64,000 nt of DNA. It comes from Chitinivibrionales bacterium. Its GTDB lineage: Bacteria > Fibrobacterota > Chitinivibrionia > Chitinivibrionales > WJKA01. Numbering within the stretch: position 1 is the stretch's first letter; every line of letters starts with the position of its first letter. Made by a program: the position numbers and the translations under genes. Shown here piece by piece: positions 25,942 through 53,208 of this stretch. The stretch lies in NCBI GenBank assembly GCA_038247415.1, contig JBBRUX010000016.1:9051-73050 (forward strand), given 5' to 3'. A model generated the notes under the pieces. That model did not search any database. It was given only the letters and a program-made list of their open reading frames with translations, and was not told the DNA's origin.

Positions 25942-27948
25942 ATGCGCCGCTCCCCCTTATTCGCTTCAGCTTCTATCCCAAGTGCTCCCTTGGGGGCAAC
26001 CATTATTAACGATGCTGTAGCATTTTCGGTGAATAGTTCTACCGCAGTTAAGGTTAGGATTCTTCTTTACAAAGATGATGTGGCACGTAACCCCTGTTTT
26101 GAATTGGAACTTATACGCACGAGTCAATTTTTGTGGCAGGGAGCCATCAAAGGTGCTCGTGCCGGCATGCTGTATGGGTACCGTATTGAAACCCGTCAAC
26201 AATTGCTTGCACAGGATGAATGTTTGGCGGTTGATCCGTATGCTAAGGCGGTATGGCCATTGCATGATGGTACTCTGCTTGCTGTTATTGTTGATGATGC
26301 ATTCGATTGGACAGATGCGCACCGTACAACCTATTCGTTTCAGGATACCATAATTTACGAAGCTCATTGCAAGGGATTTACTGCGCATGATACTTCGGGG
26401 GTTATGTCCCCGGGCACATACCGTGGGTTTATAGAAAAAATACCATATCTGCAATCGCTTGGAATAACGGCTGTTGAATTTTTGCCGTTGCATCAATCGG
26501 TACCAGAGCCATTTCTGGTAGAGGCTGGTCGAACGAATTATTGGGGCTATTCAACGCTTTCTTACTTTGCACCCGATTATCGTTTTGTATCGGCGAATGA
26601 TCCTATGGCAGCAGTGCGTGAATGTAAAGAAATGATTAATGCTCTGCACAATGCAGGCCTTGAGGTAATTCTTGATGTTGTTTACAACCACACCTGCGAA
26701 GGGAATGAAACAGGACCTCTTTTTTCGTTTAAGATCTTAGATAAAGAAGCGTATTATATTCATGATGCAGAAACCGGAGCCTTGACTGATCTGACTGGTT
26801 GTGGAAATACTTTGGATGCGGGATCGTATCCTGTAATCAAGCTGATTATGGATTCTTTACGATATTGGGTAACGGTAATGCATGTAGATGGTTTTCGGTT
26901 TGATTTAGCAACTACCTTGGGACGCCCTGCTGCAAAACCATTTGACCCAGCATCGGCTCTGCTTACCGCTATAAGACAAGACCCTATTGTAGGAATGGTT
27001 AAGCTTATTGCTGAACCTTGGGATGCAACGCCGCAGGTTTATAAACCGGGTAAGTTTCCAAATCCCTTGTACGAATGGAATGGATTATATCGGGATAGCG
27101 TACGTCGATTTTGTAAAAGTGATGCTGGCCTGGCATTGGCCTTTATTGAAGCCATATGCAATAAAGTAACGGTACCTGCTAGCAATTCGGATATACGTTT
27201 TCGTTCGATTAATTTTATTACCGCACATGATGGATTTACATTGTGGGATCTTGTTTCGTATGCTCGCAAACACAACGAAGAAAATGGCCAAAAAAATTCC
27301 GATGGCACAAACGCCAATTATTCATGGAATTGGGGTATCGAAGGGGAAACTAGTGATCCCGTAATACTCGAACAAAGATCTCTATTGTGCCGTAATTTCA
27401 TGCTCACGTTGTGCCTTTCTGCAGGTGTTCCCATGATTCTGATGGGGGACGAGGTCCACCGGTCGCAATTGGGAAATAACAATGCGTATTGTCAAGATGT
27501 GTCGTGGAACTATCTTTCCTGGAAAAATGGTGCTTTTCAGACATCGATGCTAATTTTTACAAAAGCATCGTTGAAATTGCGTAAATACCTGATAGAAAGG
27601 TATCAGGATTTTTTTAACATCGACGCAAATCCTGCGCTTGCCTTTTTTGATGAAAATGGAATTTCTCCGGTGGCGTTGGGCGAATCTCAAGCCAGATCGG
27701 TGGAAATCCTTTGTGTGCCTTGCACTATACTGCACGATTCCTGCGCATTATTGATCTGCAGCAATGCTCATTGGGAATCGCGCGATTTCACCTTTCCTCA
27801 GAATGAAAATGAGGGAGAGTGGTATCAATTGGTCGATACGAGTCGACCGGATATCTGCAATGGTGTATTTTCTATGCGCAGATGGGCAGGTACACAAGCA
27901 ACAATTTCTGCCCGATCGACTATGGTATTTGAACGGAGAAAATCATGA
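25942..27948 (+). CDS. glgX: Glycogen debranching enzyme / isoamylase (GH13)
   Basis: NYWGYST, DVVYNHT, DGFRFDLA, AEPWD, TAHDGFTL. Confidence 0.92.
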   Translation: MRRSPLFASASIPSAPLGATIINDAVAFSVNSSTAVKVRILLYKDDVARNPCFELELIRTSQFLWQGAIKGARAGMLYGYRIETRQQLLAQDECLAVDPYAKAVWPLHDGTLLAVIVDDAFDWTDAHRTTYSFQDTIIYEAHCKGFTAHDTSGVMSPGTYRGFIEKIPYLQSLGITAVEFLPLHQSVPEPFLVEAGRTNYWGYSTLSYFAPDYRFVSANDPMAAVRECKEMINALHNAGLEVILDVVYNHTCEGNETGPLFSFKILDKEAYYIHDAETGALTDLTGCGNTLDAGSYPVIKLIMDSLRYWVTVMHVDGFRFDLATTLGRPAAKPFDPASALLTAIRQDPIVGMVKLIAEPWDATPQVYKPGKFPNPLYEWNGLYRDSVRRFCKSDAGLALAFIEAICNKVTVPASNSDIRFRSINFITAHDGFTLWDLVSYARKHNEENGQKNSDGTNANYSWNWGIEGETSDPVILEQRSLLCRNFMLTLCLSAGVPMILMGDEVHRSQLGNNNAYCQDVSWNYLSWKNGAFQTSMLIFTKASLKLRKYLIERYQDFFNIDANPALAFFDENGISPVALGESQARSVEILCVPCTILHDSCALLICSNAHWESRDFTFPQNENEGEWYQLVDTSRPDICNGVFSMRRWAGTQATISARSTMVFERRKS

Positions 27949-28736
27949 AAACATGTGAGGATATTCGCGCTAAAAGAGGGTTTATTTGTGATATGGATGG
28001 AGTGCTGTATCACGGAAATAAACTATTGCCGCGCGTAAAAGAATTTGTGGCATGGCTTATTGCCGAAAAAAAACATTTTTTATTTCTTACAAATGCAAGC
28101 GAGCGTTCCCCTCGTGAACTTGCAGAAAAGCTTTCTCGATTGGGCATCGATGTATCTCCCGATATTTTTTATACCAGTGCCCTTGCTACAGCAGAGTTTT
28201 TAGCGTCCCAACGACCCAAAGGAAGCGCCTTTGTTATTGGCGAAGCAGGTCTTATCAATGCGCTGTACGATGCGGGGTATACCATGAATGAGGTTAATCC
28301 CGATTATGTGGTGGTGGGTGAAACTCATTCGTATACGTACGATCGTATTAGTAAAGCTATTAATTTGGTGCTTGGCGGCGCACGCCTTATTGGCACCAAT
28401 CCCGATCTAACAGGCCCTGTGGAACATGGGATTGTACCTGCAACAAAAGCATTACTTGCTCCAATCGAATTGTCAACAGGACGCAATGCTTATTATGTGG
28501 GCAAACCAAATCCCCTTATTATGCGCCATGCACTCAAAAAACTCGGATGCATCCGTGAAGAAACCGCAATAATCGGCGATCGTATGGACACCGATATTGT
28601 TGCAGGGATAGAATCTGAAATTGATACGGTTCTTGTTCTCACGGGTGTTACAAAAAGAGAAACACTGGGAGCTTTTCCCTATCAGCCTTCGCTTGTGCTT
28701 GAGGGGGTGGGGGAGATTATTGATGGGAAACTATAA
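27945..28736 (+). CDS. nagD: HAD-IIA hydrolase (NagD-like)
   Basis: DMDGVL, LTN, GKPN, IGDRMDTDI. Confidence 0.85.
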   Translation: MKTCEDIRAKRGFICDMDGVLYHGNKLLPRVKEFVAWLIAEKKHFLFLTNASERSPRELAEKLSRLGIDVSPDIFYTSALATAEFLASQRPKGSAFVIGEAGLINALYDAGYTMNEVNPDYVVVGETHSYTYDRISKAINLVLGGARLIGTNPDLTGPVEHGIVPATKALLAPIELSTGRNAYYVGKPNPLIMRHALKKLGCIREETAIIGDRMDTDIVAGIESEIDTVLVLTGVTKRETLGAFPYQPSLVLEGVGEIIDGKL

Positions 28737-28747
28737 ATATGTAAGTT

Positions 28748-28962
28748 AAGATAAGATTTTGGACGTTCCAGCTTCGCCGTCGCCCCTACCCCTTCGGGCG
28801 ACCAAAGGAAGTGCCCTTGGGGTATGTTCCGATGCGGCTTCCTTTATGGGTTCTCGCTTCGCGAGCCGGTCTTTCATGCCATGAGGCACTTCGTGCCTGA
28901 GGCATTTAAGACTGAAAGCTTCACTCCGTTTTGCTTTCACCCTCCAGTCCGGGCTAATGCGC
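28748..28962 (-). repeat. Structured multi-hairpin element, copy A
   Basis: Reverse complement aligns with 29071-29235; shared GGACTGGAG, GTGAA, CAGTCT, AGACCGGCT, GCGAAGC, CTTATCTT. Confidence 0.75.
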
Positions 28963-28976
28963 TTGACATAAGAGGG

Positions 28977-29059
28977 TGCAGAACACGATTAAAGGATTAC
29001 GGGATTATCATGATTAGGTCTGAAAAAATCATGCCCATCACATAAATCATAGTTTAGAC
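28977..29059. repeat. Imperfect GATT/AATC periodic palindrome
   Basis: GATT at 28987, 28995, 29003, 29012; (A/C)ATC at 29027, 29036, 29045. Confidence 0.55.
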
Positions 29060-29070
29060 TATTGACTTCC

Positions 29071-29235
29071 GCGCCAGGCAGGACTGGAGTGTAATGGATG
29101 AACAGCGTGAATCCATCAGTCTGGAAAGACCCAGGTGCAGAGCACCGCAGGGCTTGACAGACCGGCTTGCGAAGCAAGAGCACGTAAGAAGGACCGGTAC
29201 CGCAGGTAGGCGCCCAAGAGATTGATACTTATCTT
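29071..29235 (+). repeat. Structured multi-hairpin element, copy B
   Basis: Homologous to copy A with compensatory stem changes. Confidence 0.75.
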
Positions 29236-29251
29236 GTAAAGGCTCATCGCC

Positions 29252-30016
29252 TTATACTATTTCCAACTTCATTGAAGATAAAAAATCCAGCGCCTTCATT
29301 TCATCATCCTTAGAAGCATGATAGGCAATATAAGAGCACAGTATCCTGATTACAGAAACCGCTTGACCAATTCCAAAGGAGAGAGAAAGTTCGTTTTTTT
29401 GGGTACGGTCAATAAGCCGGATAAGCGGGAGCGGGATAAAGGAATCTGTGGAGGACGCTGGTTTACAATAAGAACAAACAAACCCACCTTCGGTTGTTTT
29501 GAGCGTGCCGCCGTCTGTTGCGTTGAGTGAGCGAGAGCATGCAATGCACTGTGCTGTGTTGATATCATACCCTTCATGATAAGCGCATAACGCAAGGAAC
29601 GAGATTAATTCTATCGATGCGTAAAGGGGGGATGGGGCTTTAACGCAGTGCCACATCCAAAGAACAATTTGTTCGTAGAGGGATGGATGAGATTCGCCTA
29701 GTACAAGGAACTTTTGTAGAAGCTCAAAACCGGCATCAAGAAGTGCAGTTGTAAATATATCGGGGTTGTCTGCTGCGGGAAATCCGGTGAGATGAAGCGA
29801 GCCAAGAATGCCAAGCTCTGCATGGGGTCGCAGATAGAGGGTTGTTTCGATGATCATGCCACGCTGGGGGAAAAATGCCATGGGCTTTTTTCGTTTGATG
29901 CCTTTGGCAATGCCTTGAATTCTGCCATGACTTTTTGTAAATATTGTAAGAAGCGCGCTGGTTTCCCGATAGGGTCTAACAGAAAGGATTATTGCTTCGG
30001 TTGCATAGGGGGCCAT
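29252..30016 (-). CDS. recO: DNA repair protein RecO
   Basis: TEAIIL..RPYRETS..LTIFTKSHGRI.GIAKG N-terminus; CxxC...CxxC zinc motif. Confidence 0.9.
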   Translation of the reverse strand: MAPYATEAIILSVRPYRETSALLTIFTKSHGRIQGIAKGIKRKKPMAFFPQRGMIIETTLYLRPHAELGILGSLHLTGFPAADNPDIFTTALLDAGFELLQKFLVLGESHPSLYEQIVLWMWHCVKAPSPLYASIELISFLALCAYHEGYDINTAQCIACSRSLNATDGGTLKTTEGGFVCSYCKPASSTDSFIPLPLIRLIDRTQKNELSLSFGIGQAVSVIRILCSYIAYHASKDDEMKALDFLSSMKLEIV

Positions 30017-51255: not shown

Positions 51256-52513
51256 GGTATCCGTCCTGCCGAATCTGTTGTAAATAAAAGTGATCGGGCG
51301 GAACGTCGACACCCGAAAATGAGTGCATGCCGGTACTATTGGATGTCCACCGAAGCCACTCATTATATCCGCTAAAATTTTCGGGTAATTCGTTTGCAAA
51401 AATAGAATCGAGATCCCATGACGCAATAATGCTTGGCGCACAAGGCATAAGAACTCCACCAAAGACAATCATGGTATTGCCAGATCCATAAGAGCACAAC
51501 AATATTTTCTTGCCGATAATGGCATCGCCTTCTTCTTGATAGGCTGCGCGAAGCTGAAATGCAAGGTTGAGAAACAGTGCTCCATTGTAAATATTTCCAA
51601 TGCGGGCAATAGCATCGGCCCCTGTGTAAAAATACCGCGTGTGCAGGATCGATTCTACCATGTGCTTATCACCTATTTTTTTGTCAACCATTAGATGTAC
51701 CATTCCCGTGATTGCCATATTGCGAAAAGGAGTGTGCAGGGCAAAAAATGACGTTTCGTTGAGTACGGTCTGGGGATTCTGATTCGATCGGGCACAATAG
51801 TCGTCGAAGGATGCCGAAAATGCTTTGGCATAGCATTCGATAGAATACCGCCCTTTTACTACCGCGGTTTTTTGGTCGATGGGTCTAAAAAAATCATCAA
51901 CATCATAGCTACAGCTGCCAACATTGCGCATATCAAGCTCTATAAGTGTTGGGGAAAGACTTGCCCAAACGGCCACTGCTCCTGCGCCCTGGGTAACCTC
52001 TGCTGTTGACATAGGCTTATAGCGTGAAATATCACTTGTTACTATAATGCCCGATTCTTGGGCTCTTCCGCAGGCACACAGGAGTGCGCATACACTCAAG
52101 AGAGAAAGCGCCCCTCCAGCACATCCATTTTGAATCTGAAAGGTAGAAATAAGCGATGGGAGTTCGATACCGCTTCTCTGGAGCATGCCCTGAATGTACG
52201 AAGCAATAGATTTAGACATATCTAGCGAAGTTTCGGTTCCTACAACCAGGTATCGAGATGATGCGGGGAGCAGGTTGCGATTACGCGAAAGGAGCTTTTT
52301 AAGGGCCTGTGCTGCAATGGTTGCAGAATCTTCCCACGAATGCGTAAATCGCATCGCTTTCTGGCCGGTTAGCGTTACGGCATTGCGGAGTTTTCTACCC
52401 AATTCTGGTTGTTCGATACTGCGCTGGGCTATAAGAGTTTCGAGCGAAATTTGCCGAGAAGGAATAAAAACGCCAATATCATCAATACCCACGCTGTGTA
52501 GGTTATTATTCAT
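51236..52513 (-). CDS. mvaS: HMG-CoA synthase
   Basis: VGTET (Glu), QNGCAGG (Cys), HTPF (His), TQGAGA, DFFRP, GNIYNG, SYGSG. Confidence 0.92.
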   Translation of the reverse strand: MNNNLHSVGIDDIGVFIPSRQISLETLIAQRSIEQPELGRKLRNAVTLTGQKAMRFTHSWEDSATIAAQALKKLLSRNRNLLPASSRYLVVGTETSLDMSKSIASYIQGMLQRSGIELPSLISTFQIQNGCAGGALSLLSVCALLCACGRAQESGIIVTSDISRYKPMSTAEVTQGAGAVAVWASLSPTLIELDMRNVGSCSYDVDDFFRPIDQKTAVVKGRYSIECYAKAFSASFDDYCARSNQNPQTVLNETSFFALHTPFRNMAITGMVHLMVDKKIGDKHMVESILHTRYFYTGADAIARIGNIYNGALFLNLAFQLRAAYQEEGDAIIGKKILLCSYGSGNTMIVFGGVLMPCAPSIIASWDLDSIFANELPENFSGYNEWLRWTSNSTGMHSFSGVDVPPDHFYLQQIRQDGYREYSIT

Positions 52514-52818
52514 GGAGTGCCTTTTTTTAGGATACCTACTCGGTTTGAATCTACCCACCGTGTGTTAATCATACAAAGTAAGGAGCAGCTATTGTTTATA
52601 AATTCGATCAACATTGTTATGATATTGTTAGCGCGGCGAAATTGTTTGAGACTTTTCAAGGTCTAATGGATTATTGGTAACCCACTATAGAACAATGGGC
52701 AGATGCTTCCAATATTTGTTTGCGCCGTCTTCAACAGCATTGTTTTGCGGCTATGATTATATATGCGCATATGCGGTATATAATGCAAATCAAACCAAAC
52801 AAATAAGAGGAGCAATTA

Positions 52819-53208
52819 ATGCGATAGCATCAATTGGCGCTTGCCGTGTTAGCAGTCACCATTCCGCTCTTAGCGGATGAGATAGGTCAACGAGGATATG
52901 ATGTTAATAGCAAAATTGAGCAAACCTTTCGCAATGCCCTTGGGGTTGAAGGTATGGCAGACGATTTTGAGGTTGGTGAAGATATTAAAGTTGATTTCAG
53001 TGAGTTGGGTAAAACGGTTTATTCCAGAAAATATGTTGATAAAAAAACTGGCGAAATAAAGCGAATTACCATCGATAATGCTGCTAAAGAATACTTGGTA
53101 TGGATTAGCTTGGTCGAATCGATAATAGTTATATTAAGTTTTTGTGGCTCCGCTGCAATTGCGGAGCCACATTCGGTTACAGCATCAACAATGGAGCCTA
53201 AGTGCTAA
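52819..53208 (+). pseudogene. Degraded gene for an exported protein
   Basis: GAGGAG + ATG CGA TAG (stop at codon 3), then an in-frame signal-peptide-like sequence. Confidence 0.45.

Follow-up and report, generated by a model that had tools for sequence, protein, structure and literature searches.

Introduction

The dispersed repeats described so far in bacteria are, to our knowledge, simple hairpins or inverted-repeat elements. Correia, ERIC, BOX and neisserial mosaic repeats and the small repeats of Deinococcus fold, if at all, as one long hairpin formed from their inverted ends. Integron attC sites consist of one imperfect hairpin, lie in cassette arrays beside intI and are read as folded single-stranded DNA (ssDNA) by the recombinase. 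The ends and guide RNAs of IS200/IS605, IS110 and related elements, namely sub-terminal ssDNA hairpins and omega or bridge RNAs whose fold is needed for mobility, adjoin tnpA, tnpB, iscB or an IS110-type recombinase gene. Here we describe a repeat found in a window of 64,000 nucleotides (the whole stretch of DNA analysed) from a Chitinivibrionales bacterium (assembly GCA_038247415.1, contig JBBRUX010000016.1), in which the 515-nt gap between a nagD-like gene and recO holds two homologous units, A and B. An earlier note, made from the sequence alone, had reported two diverged homologous units in this gap, and we confirmed them: A has minus and B plus orientation, with their 5' ends facing, and their mean column identity in alignment is 73%.

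We found that the unit, with a core of about 150 nt and matched copies of about 165-220 nt, belongs to a dispersed repeat family, and we are highly confident that the fold of this family is under selection. We regard this as a new family within the dispersed non-autonomous repeats, one whose members are structured, mobile and intergenic. We propose, at a probability of roughly 55%, that it is a modular, non-autonomous mobile repeat copied via a folded single strand and that the window holds one composite copy of it. What was observed directly is that the copies are many and dispersed, that they lie strictly between genes, that related species have the unit or a replacement for it at the same locus, that all helices show strong compensatory change and that no gene is linked to the copies.

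Results

The unit is dispersed in many copies

The genome that contains the window (G000, the own genome) is a 3.84-Mb draft in 99 contigs. When unit B was used as the query, 46 places in this genome were matched, 8 of them at 91-96% identity, and a profile search (nhmmer) gave 62 matches. A covariance model (R1), built from 21 units, gave 75 matches at E <= 0.01 among 150 candidates scored, 61 of them at 43 bits or more. Together with R1 matches in 20 of 150 other Fibrobacterota genomes, these show that the locus has further homologues.

Using the 601-nt region as query, we found pieces of it on many contigs of the own genome in modular arrangement. The forms observed are A-spacer-B composites, solo A-type cores, solo B-type cores and solo end pieces, with an optional 54-nt insert. 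Further composites lie at C24:27044-27522 (85.6% over 479 nt) and on contigs C65, C28, C39, C17, C9 and C2. Several copies matched by unit B or by the 601-nt region end exactly at contig ends, which is the signature of an assembly-breaking repeat; the family therefore breaks the assemblies of these metagenome-assembled genomes (MAGs). In a sediment metagenome with the locus, contig depth over the element exceeds that of the flanking genes by a factor of about 10-20, which fits many copies, although the depth is a sum over all contigs. The eight sequencing runs found to contain the locus are all of DNA and carry no information on expression. More than 100 copies were seen overall in the analysis.

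A five-helix fold is maintained by compensatory change

Read from 5' to 3', the unit consists of a conserved purine-rich segment (GCG..AGG.AGGAC.G.AG), hairpins P2 and P3, the bases CGG, hairpin P4, a joining segment, hairpin P5 and CGCCCA(A/G)A. The P2 loop of 11-13 nt is conserved. P4 carries a near-invariant GCGAAGC, and the joining segment that follows it is conserved as GAGC...GGAGG.CCGA. P5 is highly variable in length, with long perfect extensions in other genomes. The ends of the unit are joined by P1, a 5-bp long-range helix of the form 5'-GCNNN...NNNGC-3' followed by an invariant CCA, which encloses P2-P5 and was not part of the earlier reading of the locus. P1 occurs, for example, as GCGTT/AACGC, GCATT/AATGC, GCGTA/TACGC, GCACG/CGTGC, GCGAC/GTCGC, GCGTG/CACGC, GCATG/CATGC, GCGAA/TTCGC and GCGGC/GCCGC.

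Three of the helices were recovered by column-pair statistics on a plain MAFFT alignment without a model, and the remaining helices were suggested by single-sequence folds. P1 itself was recognised from the regular complementarity between the five bases that follow the 5' flank and the five that precede CCA. In a structure-free MAFFT alignment of 21 own-genome units, 90.7% of the cells are paired, against 34-42% when the partners are slid, and 122 cells are changed on both sides; the shuffles gave 40.1 +/- 6.3, and none of the 500 reached 122. P1 is 92.4% paired in these units, with 8, 8 and 9 double changes at three of its pairs. For 33 units from 19 other genomes, aligned to R1, the figures are 95.7% paired cells against 34-49% with slid partners and 290 double-changed cells against 89.6 +/- 7.1 in shuffles, with 32 of 36 pairs changed on both sides; this alignment was fitted to the R1 helices, so these counts are inflated. 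The P1 counts are free of that bias because R1 contains no P1, and P1 is paired in all 33 of these copies with 13-14 double changes at two of its pairs. Covariation far above shuffles in both alignments substantiates the claim, made from the two window copies, that the structure is under selection.

A scan of all column pairs in the 33-copy alignment showed no extra helix or pseudoknot, and about 25 unpaired bases are invariant in these copies. An outer P5 helix drawn at first (GGGC/GCCC) was 72.7-81% paired with almost no covariation and was replaced by P1. The compensatory stems that had been read between A and B are present in the sequence (AAAGC/GCTTT vs ATGGA/TCCAT, GGCAC-GAA-GTGCC vs GGTGC-AGA-GCACC and CTCGC-GAA-GCGAG vs CTTGC-GAA-GCAAG). 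The pairing proposed for GGACTG...CAGTCT did not hold, as covariation puts GTCTG with CAGAC further downstream. Among known bacterial repeats we know of no counterpart to a closed five-helix fold kept by covariation across an order.

The composite copy in the nagD-recO gap

The features of the locus are as follows (window coordinates).

28748-29235 (488 bp, outer ends approximate), no strand: composite copy of inverted A, AT-rich spacer and B; the same A(-)/spacer/B(+) layout occurs elsewhere in the genome
29056-29221, plus: unit B, short form (R1 156.8 bits, G000:C16:38106-38271)
29071-29075, plus: P1 5' strand of B, GCGCC; pairs with 29209-29213, also in the RNA minimum-energy fold of B
29092-29118, plus: hairpin P2 of B, 7 bp with one A-C mismatch here and a 13-nt loop with the conserved AAC.G.GTGA; all 7 pairs covary across genomes
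29119-29162, plus: three-tier hairpin P3 of B (GTCTG...CAGAC; top GGTGC-AGA-GCACC), supported by model-free column-pair statistics and covariation
29166-29178, plus: hairpin P4 of B (CTTGC-GAA-GCAAG), including GCGAAGC; double changes at 4 of 5 pairs
29198-29208, plus: hairpin P5 of B (TACC-GCA-GGTA); 4 of 4 pairs covary, length very variable in the family
29209-29216, plus: P1 3' strand of B, GGCGC, then the invariant CCA; CGCCCA is (near-)invariant in the 33 other-genome copies
28755-28975, minus: unit A, long form with the 54-nt insert, closing helix partly decayed (R1 122.8 bits, G000:C16:37805-38025)
28956-28960, minus: P1 5' strand of A, GCATT; its partner at 28763-28767 is AACGT
28853-28939, minus: P2 (28933-28939 / 28913-28919), P3 (28869-28912) and P4 (28853-28865) of A, in the same alignment columns as those of B
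28788-28841, minus: optional 54-nt insert of A with two extra hairpins (GGAAG...CTTCC; CCC-GAA-GGG), absent in short-form copies
28763-28779, minus: end module of A, that is P5 (CGGC-GAA-GCTG, 28769-28779) and P1 3' strand (28763-28767), found with the end-module hidden Markov model (HMM)
28976-29055, no strand: AT-rich spacer separating the unit 5' ends, kept in other composite copies
28997-29015 / 29027-29045, no strand: imperfect inverted repeat inside the spacer, 74% complementary
27945-28736, plus: nagD-like HAD hydrolase gene, flanking and outside the element (Pfam Hydrolase_6 1.8e-27, Hydrolase_like 6.9e-22)
29252-30016, minus: recO, flanking and outside the element (Pfam RecO_N 2.3e-15 and RecO_C)

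P1 of A retains three standard pairs, one wobble and one mismatch; the consensus of its subfamily is GCATT/AATGC. Exactly the stretch of the 54-nt insert is missing from the composite copies on C65, C28 and C17. Open frames of 64-73 codons cross the repeat at 28746-28940 (minus), 28824-29045 (plus) and 28989-29183 (minus). Gene callers would probably list them as spurious small proteins, and frames over other copies cluster as proteins.

Distribution and searches against known families

R1 had matches in 21 of 151 Fibrobacterota genomes, G000 included, and all of them belong to one order. By family, matches were found in 5 of 8 genomes of f3, 2 of 4 of f4, 11 of 39 of f5, the single genome of f6 and 1 of 8 of f9; the other 6 genomes of the own family (f1) and the 55 of f10 gave no match. 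The highest count for a genome in this survey was at least 18 matches. A search at the blastn level gave matches in only 4 of 41 relatives, again with G000 included. A 3,186-nt query made of one unit and a second repeat module had 58 matches in G119 and 76 in G145, two genomes of one genus. When a 21-base degenerate pattern was run against one genome each of 185,579 species, only 2 loci were found; both are in uncultured Fibrobacterota/Fibrobacteres MAGs and are true homologues with compensatory changes of their own. Plasmid and phage collections gave no blastn match. As far as these searches reach, the family appears to be confined to one order of Fibrobacterota.

The 64-kb window had no match in Rfam 15 at gathering thresholds. 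At E <= 10, the interval 28600-29400 gave five weak matches, the best at E 1.8 and all far below gathering, and 18 loci of 9 genomes (48,329 bases) gave two matches at E <= 1, neither on a unit. The statement that this is not a named Rfam family thus stands at gathering and at permissive thresholds. The RtT model (RF00391) had no match at E <= 10 in the own genome (48 candidates scored) and none on the units, and the E. coli control was positive, and the HEARO (IscB RNA) model had none on the window or the 18 loci. One sub-threshold match to Whalefall-1 RNA (23.9 bits, gathering 37, E 0.055) lies at L044 1317-1365 (G145:C103); the site is a CCTCTCC...GGAGAGG hairpin module that is often found upstream of units. 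The literature searched holds no description of the element, and the Fibrobacteres passages of PMC5737381 and PMC2864571 do not mention it.

End modules, doublets and truncated copies

The end module, which comprises P5, the P1 3' strand and CCCAGATTCTTAT, also occurs by itself. The end-module HMM gave 87 matches in the own genome at E up to 10, many of them in inverted pairs, and usually an inverted end module lies upstream of a unit. We found 20 own-genome elements of 49-483 bp that are bounded by inverted end modules (GAATCTGGGCG...CGCCCAGATTC). Three of these are doublets of end modules only (C86:327-375, 49 bp; C24:49456-49536, 81 bp; C8:85574-85660, 87 bp) and the remaining 17 are larger inverted pairs. 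At B-type ends a second copy of the end motif lies about 25 nt further out. The window copy goes furthest in this respect, with a complete inverted unit in place of the left "end". Outside the own genome, we inspected the 160 nt upstream of 29 units and found an inverted end motif at none of them. The back-to-back pair emphasised in the earlier note is real and recurs in the own genome, but the basic unit is single and elsewhere solitary (0 of 29).

Inverted ends of this kind would be expected if the repeat were a miniature inverted-repeat transposable element (MITE) moved by cut and paste, with a DDE transposase binding double-stranded terminal inverted repeats and the hairpins carried as incidental cargo. 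Both the 20 bounded elements and the outward second copy of the end motif, an arrangement often seen in transposase binding sites, are consistent with this. The solitary units of other genomes (0 of 29) are not, and hairpins that were mere cargo would hardly retain 32 of 36 pairs through double changes in several families of an order. P1, moreover, links the unit's 5' end with the end module, and in these draft assemblies we found no autonomous element with the same ends and no consistent target duplication. We regard a cut-and-paste MITE as quite unlikely.

The outer ends were examined in 20 units of G145, which start with (AAT)CTTTTGACGTT-GCGTT and end with GGAACGCCC(A/G)GAAGT-TGACTTTG. After the 3' end follow tails of variable length made of degenerate TTGAC/TTTGA short repeats. 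TTGAC(G/T)TT is present at both unit ends, but in most copies the two occurrences are not identical (one base differs), which makes it a component of the element rather than a target duplication. Among internal copies, at least 10 are 5'-truncated (starts at model positions 34-125) and one is truly 3'-truncated; the other rows flagged as 3'-truncated proved to be long-form units, or B-type units with a different P5, in which the alignment breaks early.

Other modules accompany the units in some genomes. Genus g22 has a second abundant module, a hairpin with CCCCCTCCCGCAACGCCCTCT(A/T)TTAGGGTAGAAAACA (L064 1905-2100, L065 1720-1898), which usually lies about 45 nt upstream of a unit (many G145 units, L091-L110) and also occurs without one; many G119 contig ends begin in it. 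In genus g8 and some others, tandem heptamers (AGTTGAC/AGTTGAG/AGTTAAG) lie 100-130 nt upstream of units (L050, L053, L057, L069) and look like iteron or -35-type arrays. An own-genome subfamily (C79:8688-8860, C1:122328-122500, C70, C54) carries a conserved CCCAACCCCCTACCCCCACACTTGGGGG module 30-70 nt upstream and, after it, a sigma-70-like TTTACA-N17-TATGAT or TTGCAA-N16-TTAAAT directed into the unit. Units are otherwise solitary or inverted, but L062 1147-2044 (G091:C37) contains a head-to-tail array of three that repeats every 354 nt.

Genomic context and replacement at orthologous sites

All 61 strong own-genome copies lie between open reading frames, and convergent, tandem and divergent gaps are all used. 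The two neighbouring genes are oriented relative to the unit as same/same in 12 cases, same/opposite in 11, opposite/same in 10 and opposite/opposite in 9. We found no recurrent protein family, either in the 1.5 kb around own-genome copies or in 28 other-genome loci (L043-L071 without L063); apparent protein clusters near copies turned out to be translated repeat DNA or unrelated paralogues. This tabulation of neighbour genes agrees with the proposal of a non-autonomous element with no enzyme gene beside its copies.

We compared loci between the two species represented by G119 and G145, with flanks that are 81-91% identical. A unit at G119:C118 is replaced by other modules at G145:C170 (flanks 91% and 85% identical), and a unit at G145:C190 stands opposite a different hairpin module of about 100 nt at G119:C152. 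The same flanks thus enclose a unit in one species and a different module in the other, which means that units appear and disappear over the time in which species diverge. The same comparison puts the unit's start about 14 nt ahead of P1 and its end about 8 nt beyond CGCCCA. For the window's own locus, the comparison with an empty nagD-recO site that the earlier note envisaged went as far as recO, which is present in 5 of the 6 genomes of the own family (26-32% identity); nagD is beside it in none, so there is no comparable site in these genomes.

If the repeat served its host, for instance as a terminator, as an mRNA stabiliser or as a binding platform for a regulatory protein, and were kept by the host rather than by its own spread, it could also be strictly intergenic and have a fold conserved across an order. 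Such an element would not be expected to lack an orientation preference and to use convergent, tandem and divergent gaps equally, nor to be distributed patchily, with 0 of 6 genomes positive in the own family. Units are also replaced or absent at orthologous sites, and copies within a genome are more alike than copies between genomes. A role in the service of the host is thus highly improbable.

No enzyme gene recurs beside the copies

The own genome contains one Y1_Tnp gene of 327 aa (G000:C19, L073 1459-2442), which is IS200-like or RAYT-like (RAYT, REP-associated tyrosine transposase) and possibly a single-copy, domesticated HUH transposase. The gene is bracketed by 42-nt inverted repeats with GGGGACG motifs (L073 1382-2466, G000:C19 ~51769-52853) that occur nowhere else in the own genome. 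At eight Y1 loci of five genomes, G135 among them, there was no R1 match, and the end motif was not enriched beyond chance beside the Y1 gene. In G145, which has many units, the Y1 match reaches only 21.1 bits with a cut-off of 23.

These data bear on whether the family is a system of REP sequences and REPINs, in which the end module would be the REP, the doublets would be REPINs and a single-copy RAYT of the Y1 HUH type would move ssDNA hairpins. The earlier note had suggested such a link from a GTAG in copy A. The end-module doublets of 49, 81 and 87 bp, the single 327-aa Y1_Tnp and the GTAGGGGCG of copy A resemble such a system. However, GTAG is not conserved: GTAGGGGCG is the reverse complement of 28781-28789, its GTAG arises at the junction of the 54-nt insert, and other long-form copies read GGTGAGG, GGTGAAGG or GGTTGGTG at this site. 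The 150-nt closed fold has no counterpart in REPs, doublets are lacking in other genomes (0 of 29), the Y1 match of G145 is below threshold, and the lone Y1 gene of the own genome has unrelated repeats of its own and no unit nearby. The GTAG link thus falls away, and a REP/REPIN system is very unlikely.

No tnpA, tnpB, iscB or IS110-type gene recurs beside units, the Pfam families of TnpB and IS110 not having been searched genome-wide. The only 1.9-kb stretch bounded by inverted ends, on C86, carries the gene for an AAA_14/DUF4143 ATPase and not for a transposase. RVT_1 is found in 12 of 20 element-bearing genomes and in 52 of 130 others and is absent from G034, which has at least 17 copies; the co-occurrence with a reverse transcriptase is weak.

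Folded DNA or folded RNA

Several observations weigh against a mobile repeat copied via a folded single strand, or against that strand being DNA. The G119/G145 comparisons gave no clean empty site, none was seen in metagenome contigs, and the flanks of the 20 paired elements have no consistent target duplication. Replication-strand bias is known for some ssDNA transposons; unit orientation against local GC skew was 20 vs 23 (both composite arms counted), which is no bias. PF01609 transposases have no match in the own genome, and Y1_Tnp was rejected as the mover on account of its unrelated inverted repeats and the lack of a unit beside it. The mobilising enzyme would be encoded elsewhere, and none of the candidates checked emerged as that enzyme. 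All genomes compared are draft MAGs, in which repeats and insertion sequences may be unassembled. In own-genome copies, G-U cells outnumber A-C cells by 32 to 15. The RNA folding z-scores for sense vs antisense are -3.86 vs -2.14 and -3.33 vs -1.60 (DNA folding, -2.09 vs -1.05 and -2.93 vs -1.78), one subfamily has the promoter-like TTTACA-N17-TATGAT upstream, and a closed multi-helix junction in which about 25 unpaired bases are invariant is less typical of known DNA repeats than of functional RNAs.

The last of these observations point to an explanation at the RNA level, in which the transcribed unit acts as RNA, either as a non-autonomous retroelement of the short interspersed element (SINE) type, copied from its 3' end, or as a multicopy non-coding RNA or ribozyme. 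The closed architecture with its long-range helix and conserved junction bases would suit this explanation, as would the better folding of the sense strand, the upstream promoter-like sequence, the excess of 5'-truncated copies (at least 10 vs 1) and the variable TTGAC/TTTGA tails of the G145 units. The invariant AG directly after the P1 5' strand also recalls what we take to be the branching-G context of retron RNAs. Against this, a helix of RNA normally tolerates G-U much better than was observed across genomes, where G-U (13) is no commoner than A-C (13) among 955 cells and makes up 1.4%. A scan of 801 nt for promoter and terminator consensus gave one promoter-like and one terminator-like site, the same numbers as shuffled sequence yields; among the 20 G145 copies, the stretch ahead of the unit start shows no conservation, and orientation is random with respect to neighbouring genes. 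Rfam gave no match, RVT_1 is found in just 12 of the 20 element-bearing genomes, and no reverse transcriptase recurs beside copies, whether in the own genome or in the 28 other-genome loci. We consider the RNA explanation possible but doubtful.

The scarcity of G-U, which is no commoner than A-C, leans to DNA. Three hairpins are capped by triloops, among them the near-invariant GCGAAGC, which is an unusually stable mini-hairpin as DNA. Folded ssDNA is thus weakly favoured over RNA, and that the folded form is DNA has, in our estimate, a little under an even chance.

Discussion

For the preferred reading, a modular repeat copied via a folded single strand, the fold would be the recognition signal for an enzyme encoded elsewhere, and only copies whose single strand adopts the whole fold would be copied. 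The 3' end module (P5, P1 3' strand, CCCAGA) looks like the minimal element where copying may start. We favour copying from the 3' end because 5'-truncated copies outnumber 3'-truncated ones and because doublets of end modules only exist. Inverted end modules upstream of units, together with palindromic doublets, would have given rise to composites such as the two-armed copy in the window. A stronger proposal, which we put forward tentatively, is that of a new kind of selfish element, in which an end-joined 150-nt five-helix fold, as RNA or ssDNA, is itself the substrate that an enzyme encoded elsewhere copies, beginning at the 3' end module.

If this stronger proposal were true with an RNA intermediate, the family would be the first SINE-like retroelement, or a new class of multicopy ribozyme or RNA, in bacteria. 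If it were true with DNA, the fold would be a branched-DNA recognition signal unlike those of REPs, attC sites or IS200/IS605 ends. A branched fold with a long-range closing helix that at least five families keep through compensatory change, at tens of copies in each genome and without any gene linked to it, implies copying machinery that reads structure. With 36 base pairs, the family provides a well-defined and sequence-rich case for asking whether bacterial repeats spread via folded RNA or via branched ssDNA.

The element behaves like REP/BIME/REPIN sequences and like mosaic, MITE-type repeats, yet it departs from each named family in the features that define it. With the REP/BIME/REPIN sequences of Enterobacteria and Pseudomonas (PMC3116915, PMC3337134) it shares its multicopy, strictly intergenic and hairpin-forming nature, the lack of a gene inside, and occurrence as single copies, inverted doublets and mosaics that include further modules. 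A REP is one hairpin of about 20-40 nt whose head is of a conserved GTAG type, and REPs flank a single-copy RAYT, whereas the element has a 150-nt closed five-helix fold in which GTAG is not conserved. RtT and other tRNA-linked repeats are likewise hairpin-rich, multicopy and non-coding; within the window, the units described here do not adjoin tRNA genes.

Bacterial MITEs and mosaic repeats are, like the element, non-autonomous, 50-500 bp long, modular and patchy among relatives, and share the inverted ends found in the own genome; the units of other genomes differ from them in having no inverted ends. We know of no MITE-type repeat with a long-range closing helix and four internal hairpins kept across an order by covariation. 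The ends and guide RNAs of IS200/IS605 and IS110 elements resemble the unit as structured non-coding segments of 100-250 nt at one end of an element, with non-autonomous derivatives. Retrons have a single-copy non-coding RNA beside a reverse transcriptase, in contrast to tens of copies per genome with no recurrent neighbour gene. The element shares with attC sites the conservation of structure over sequence, and differs from them in its branched fold and in its dispersed copies without cassettes.

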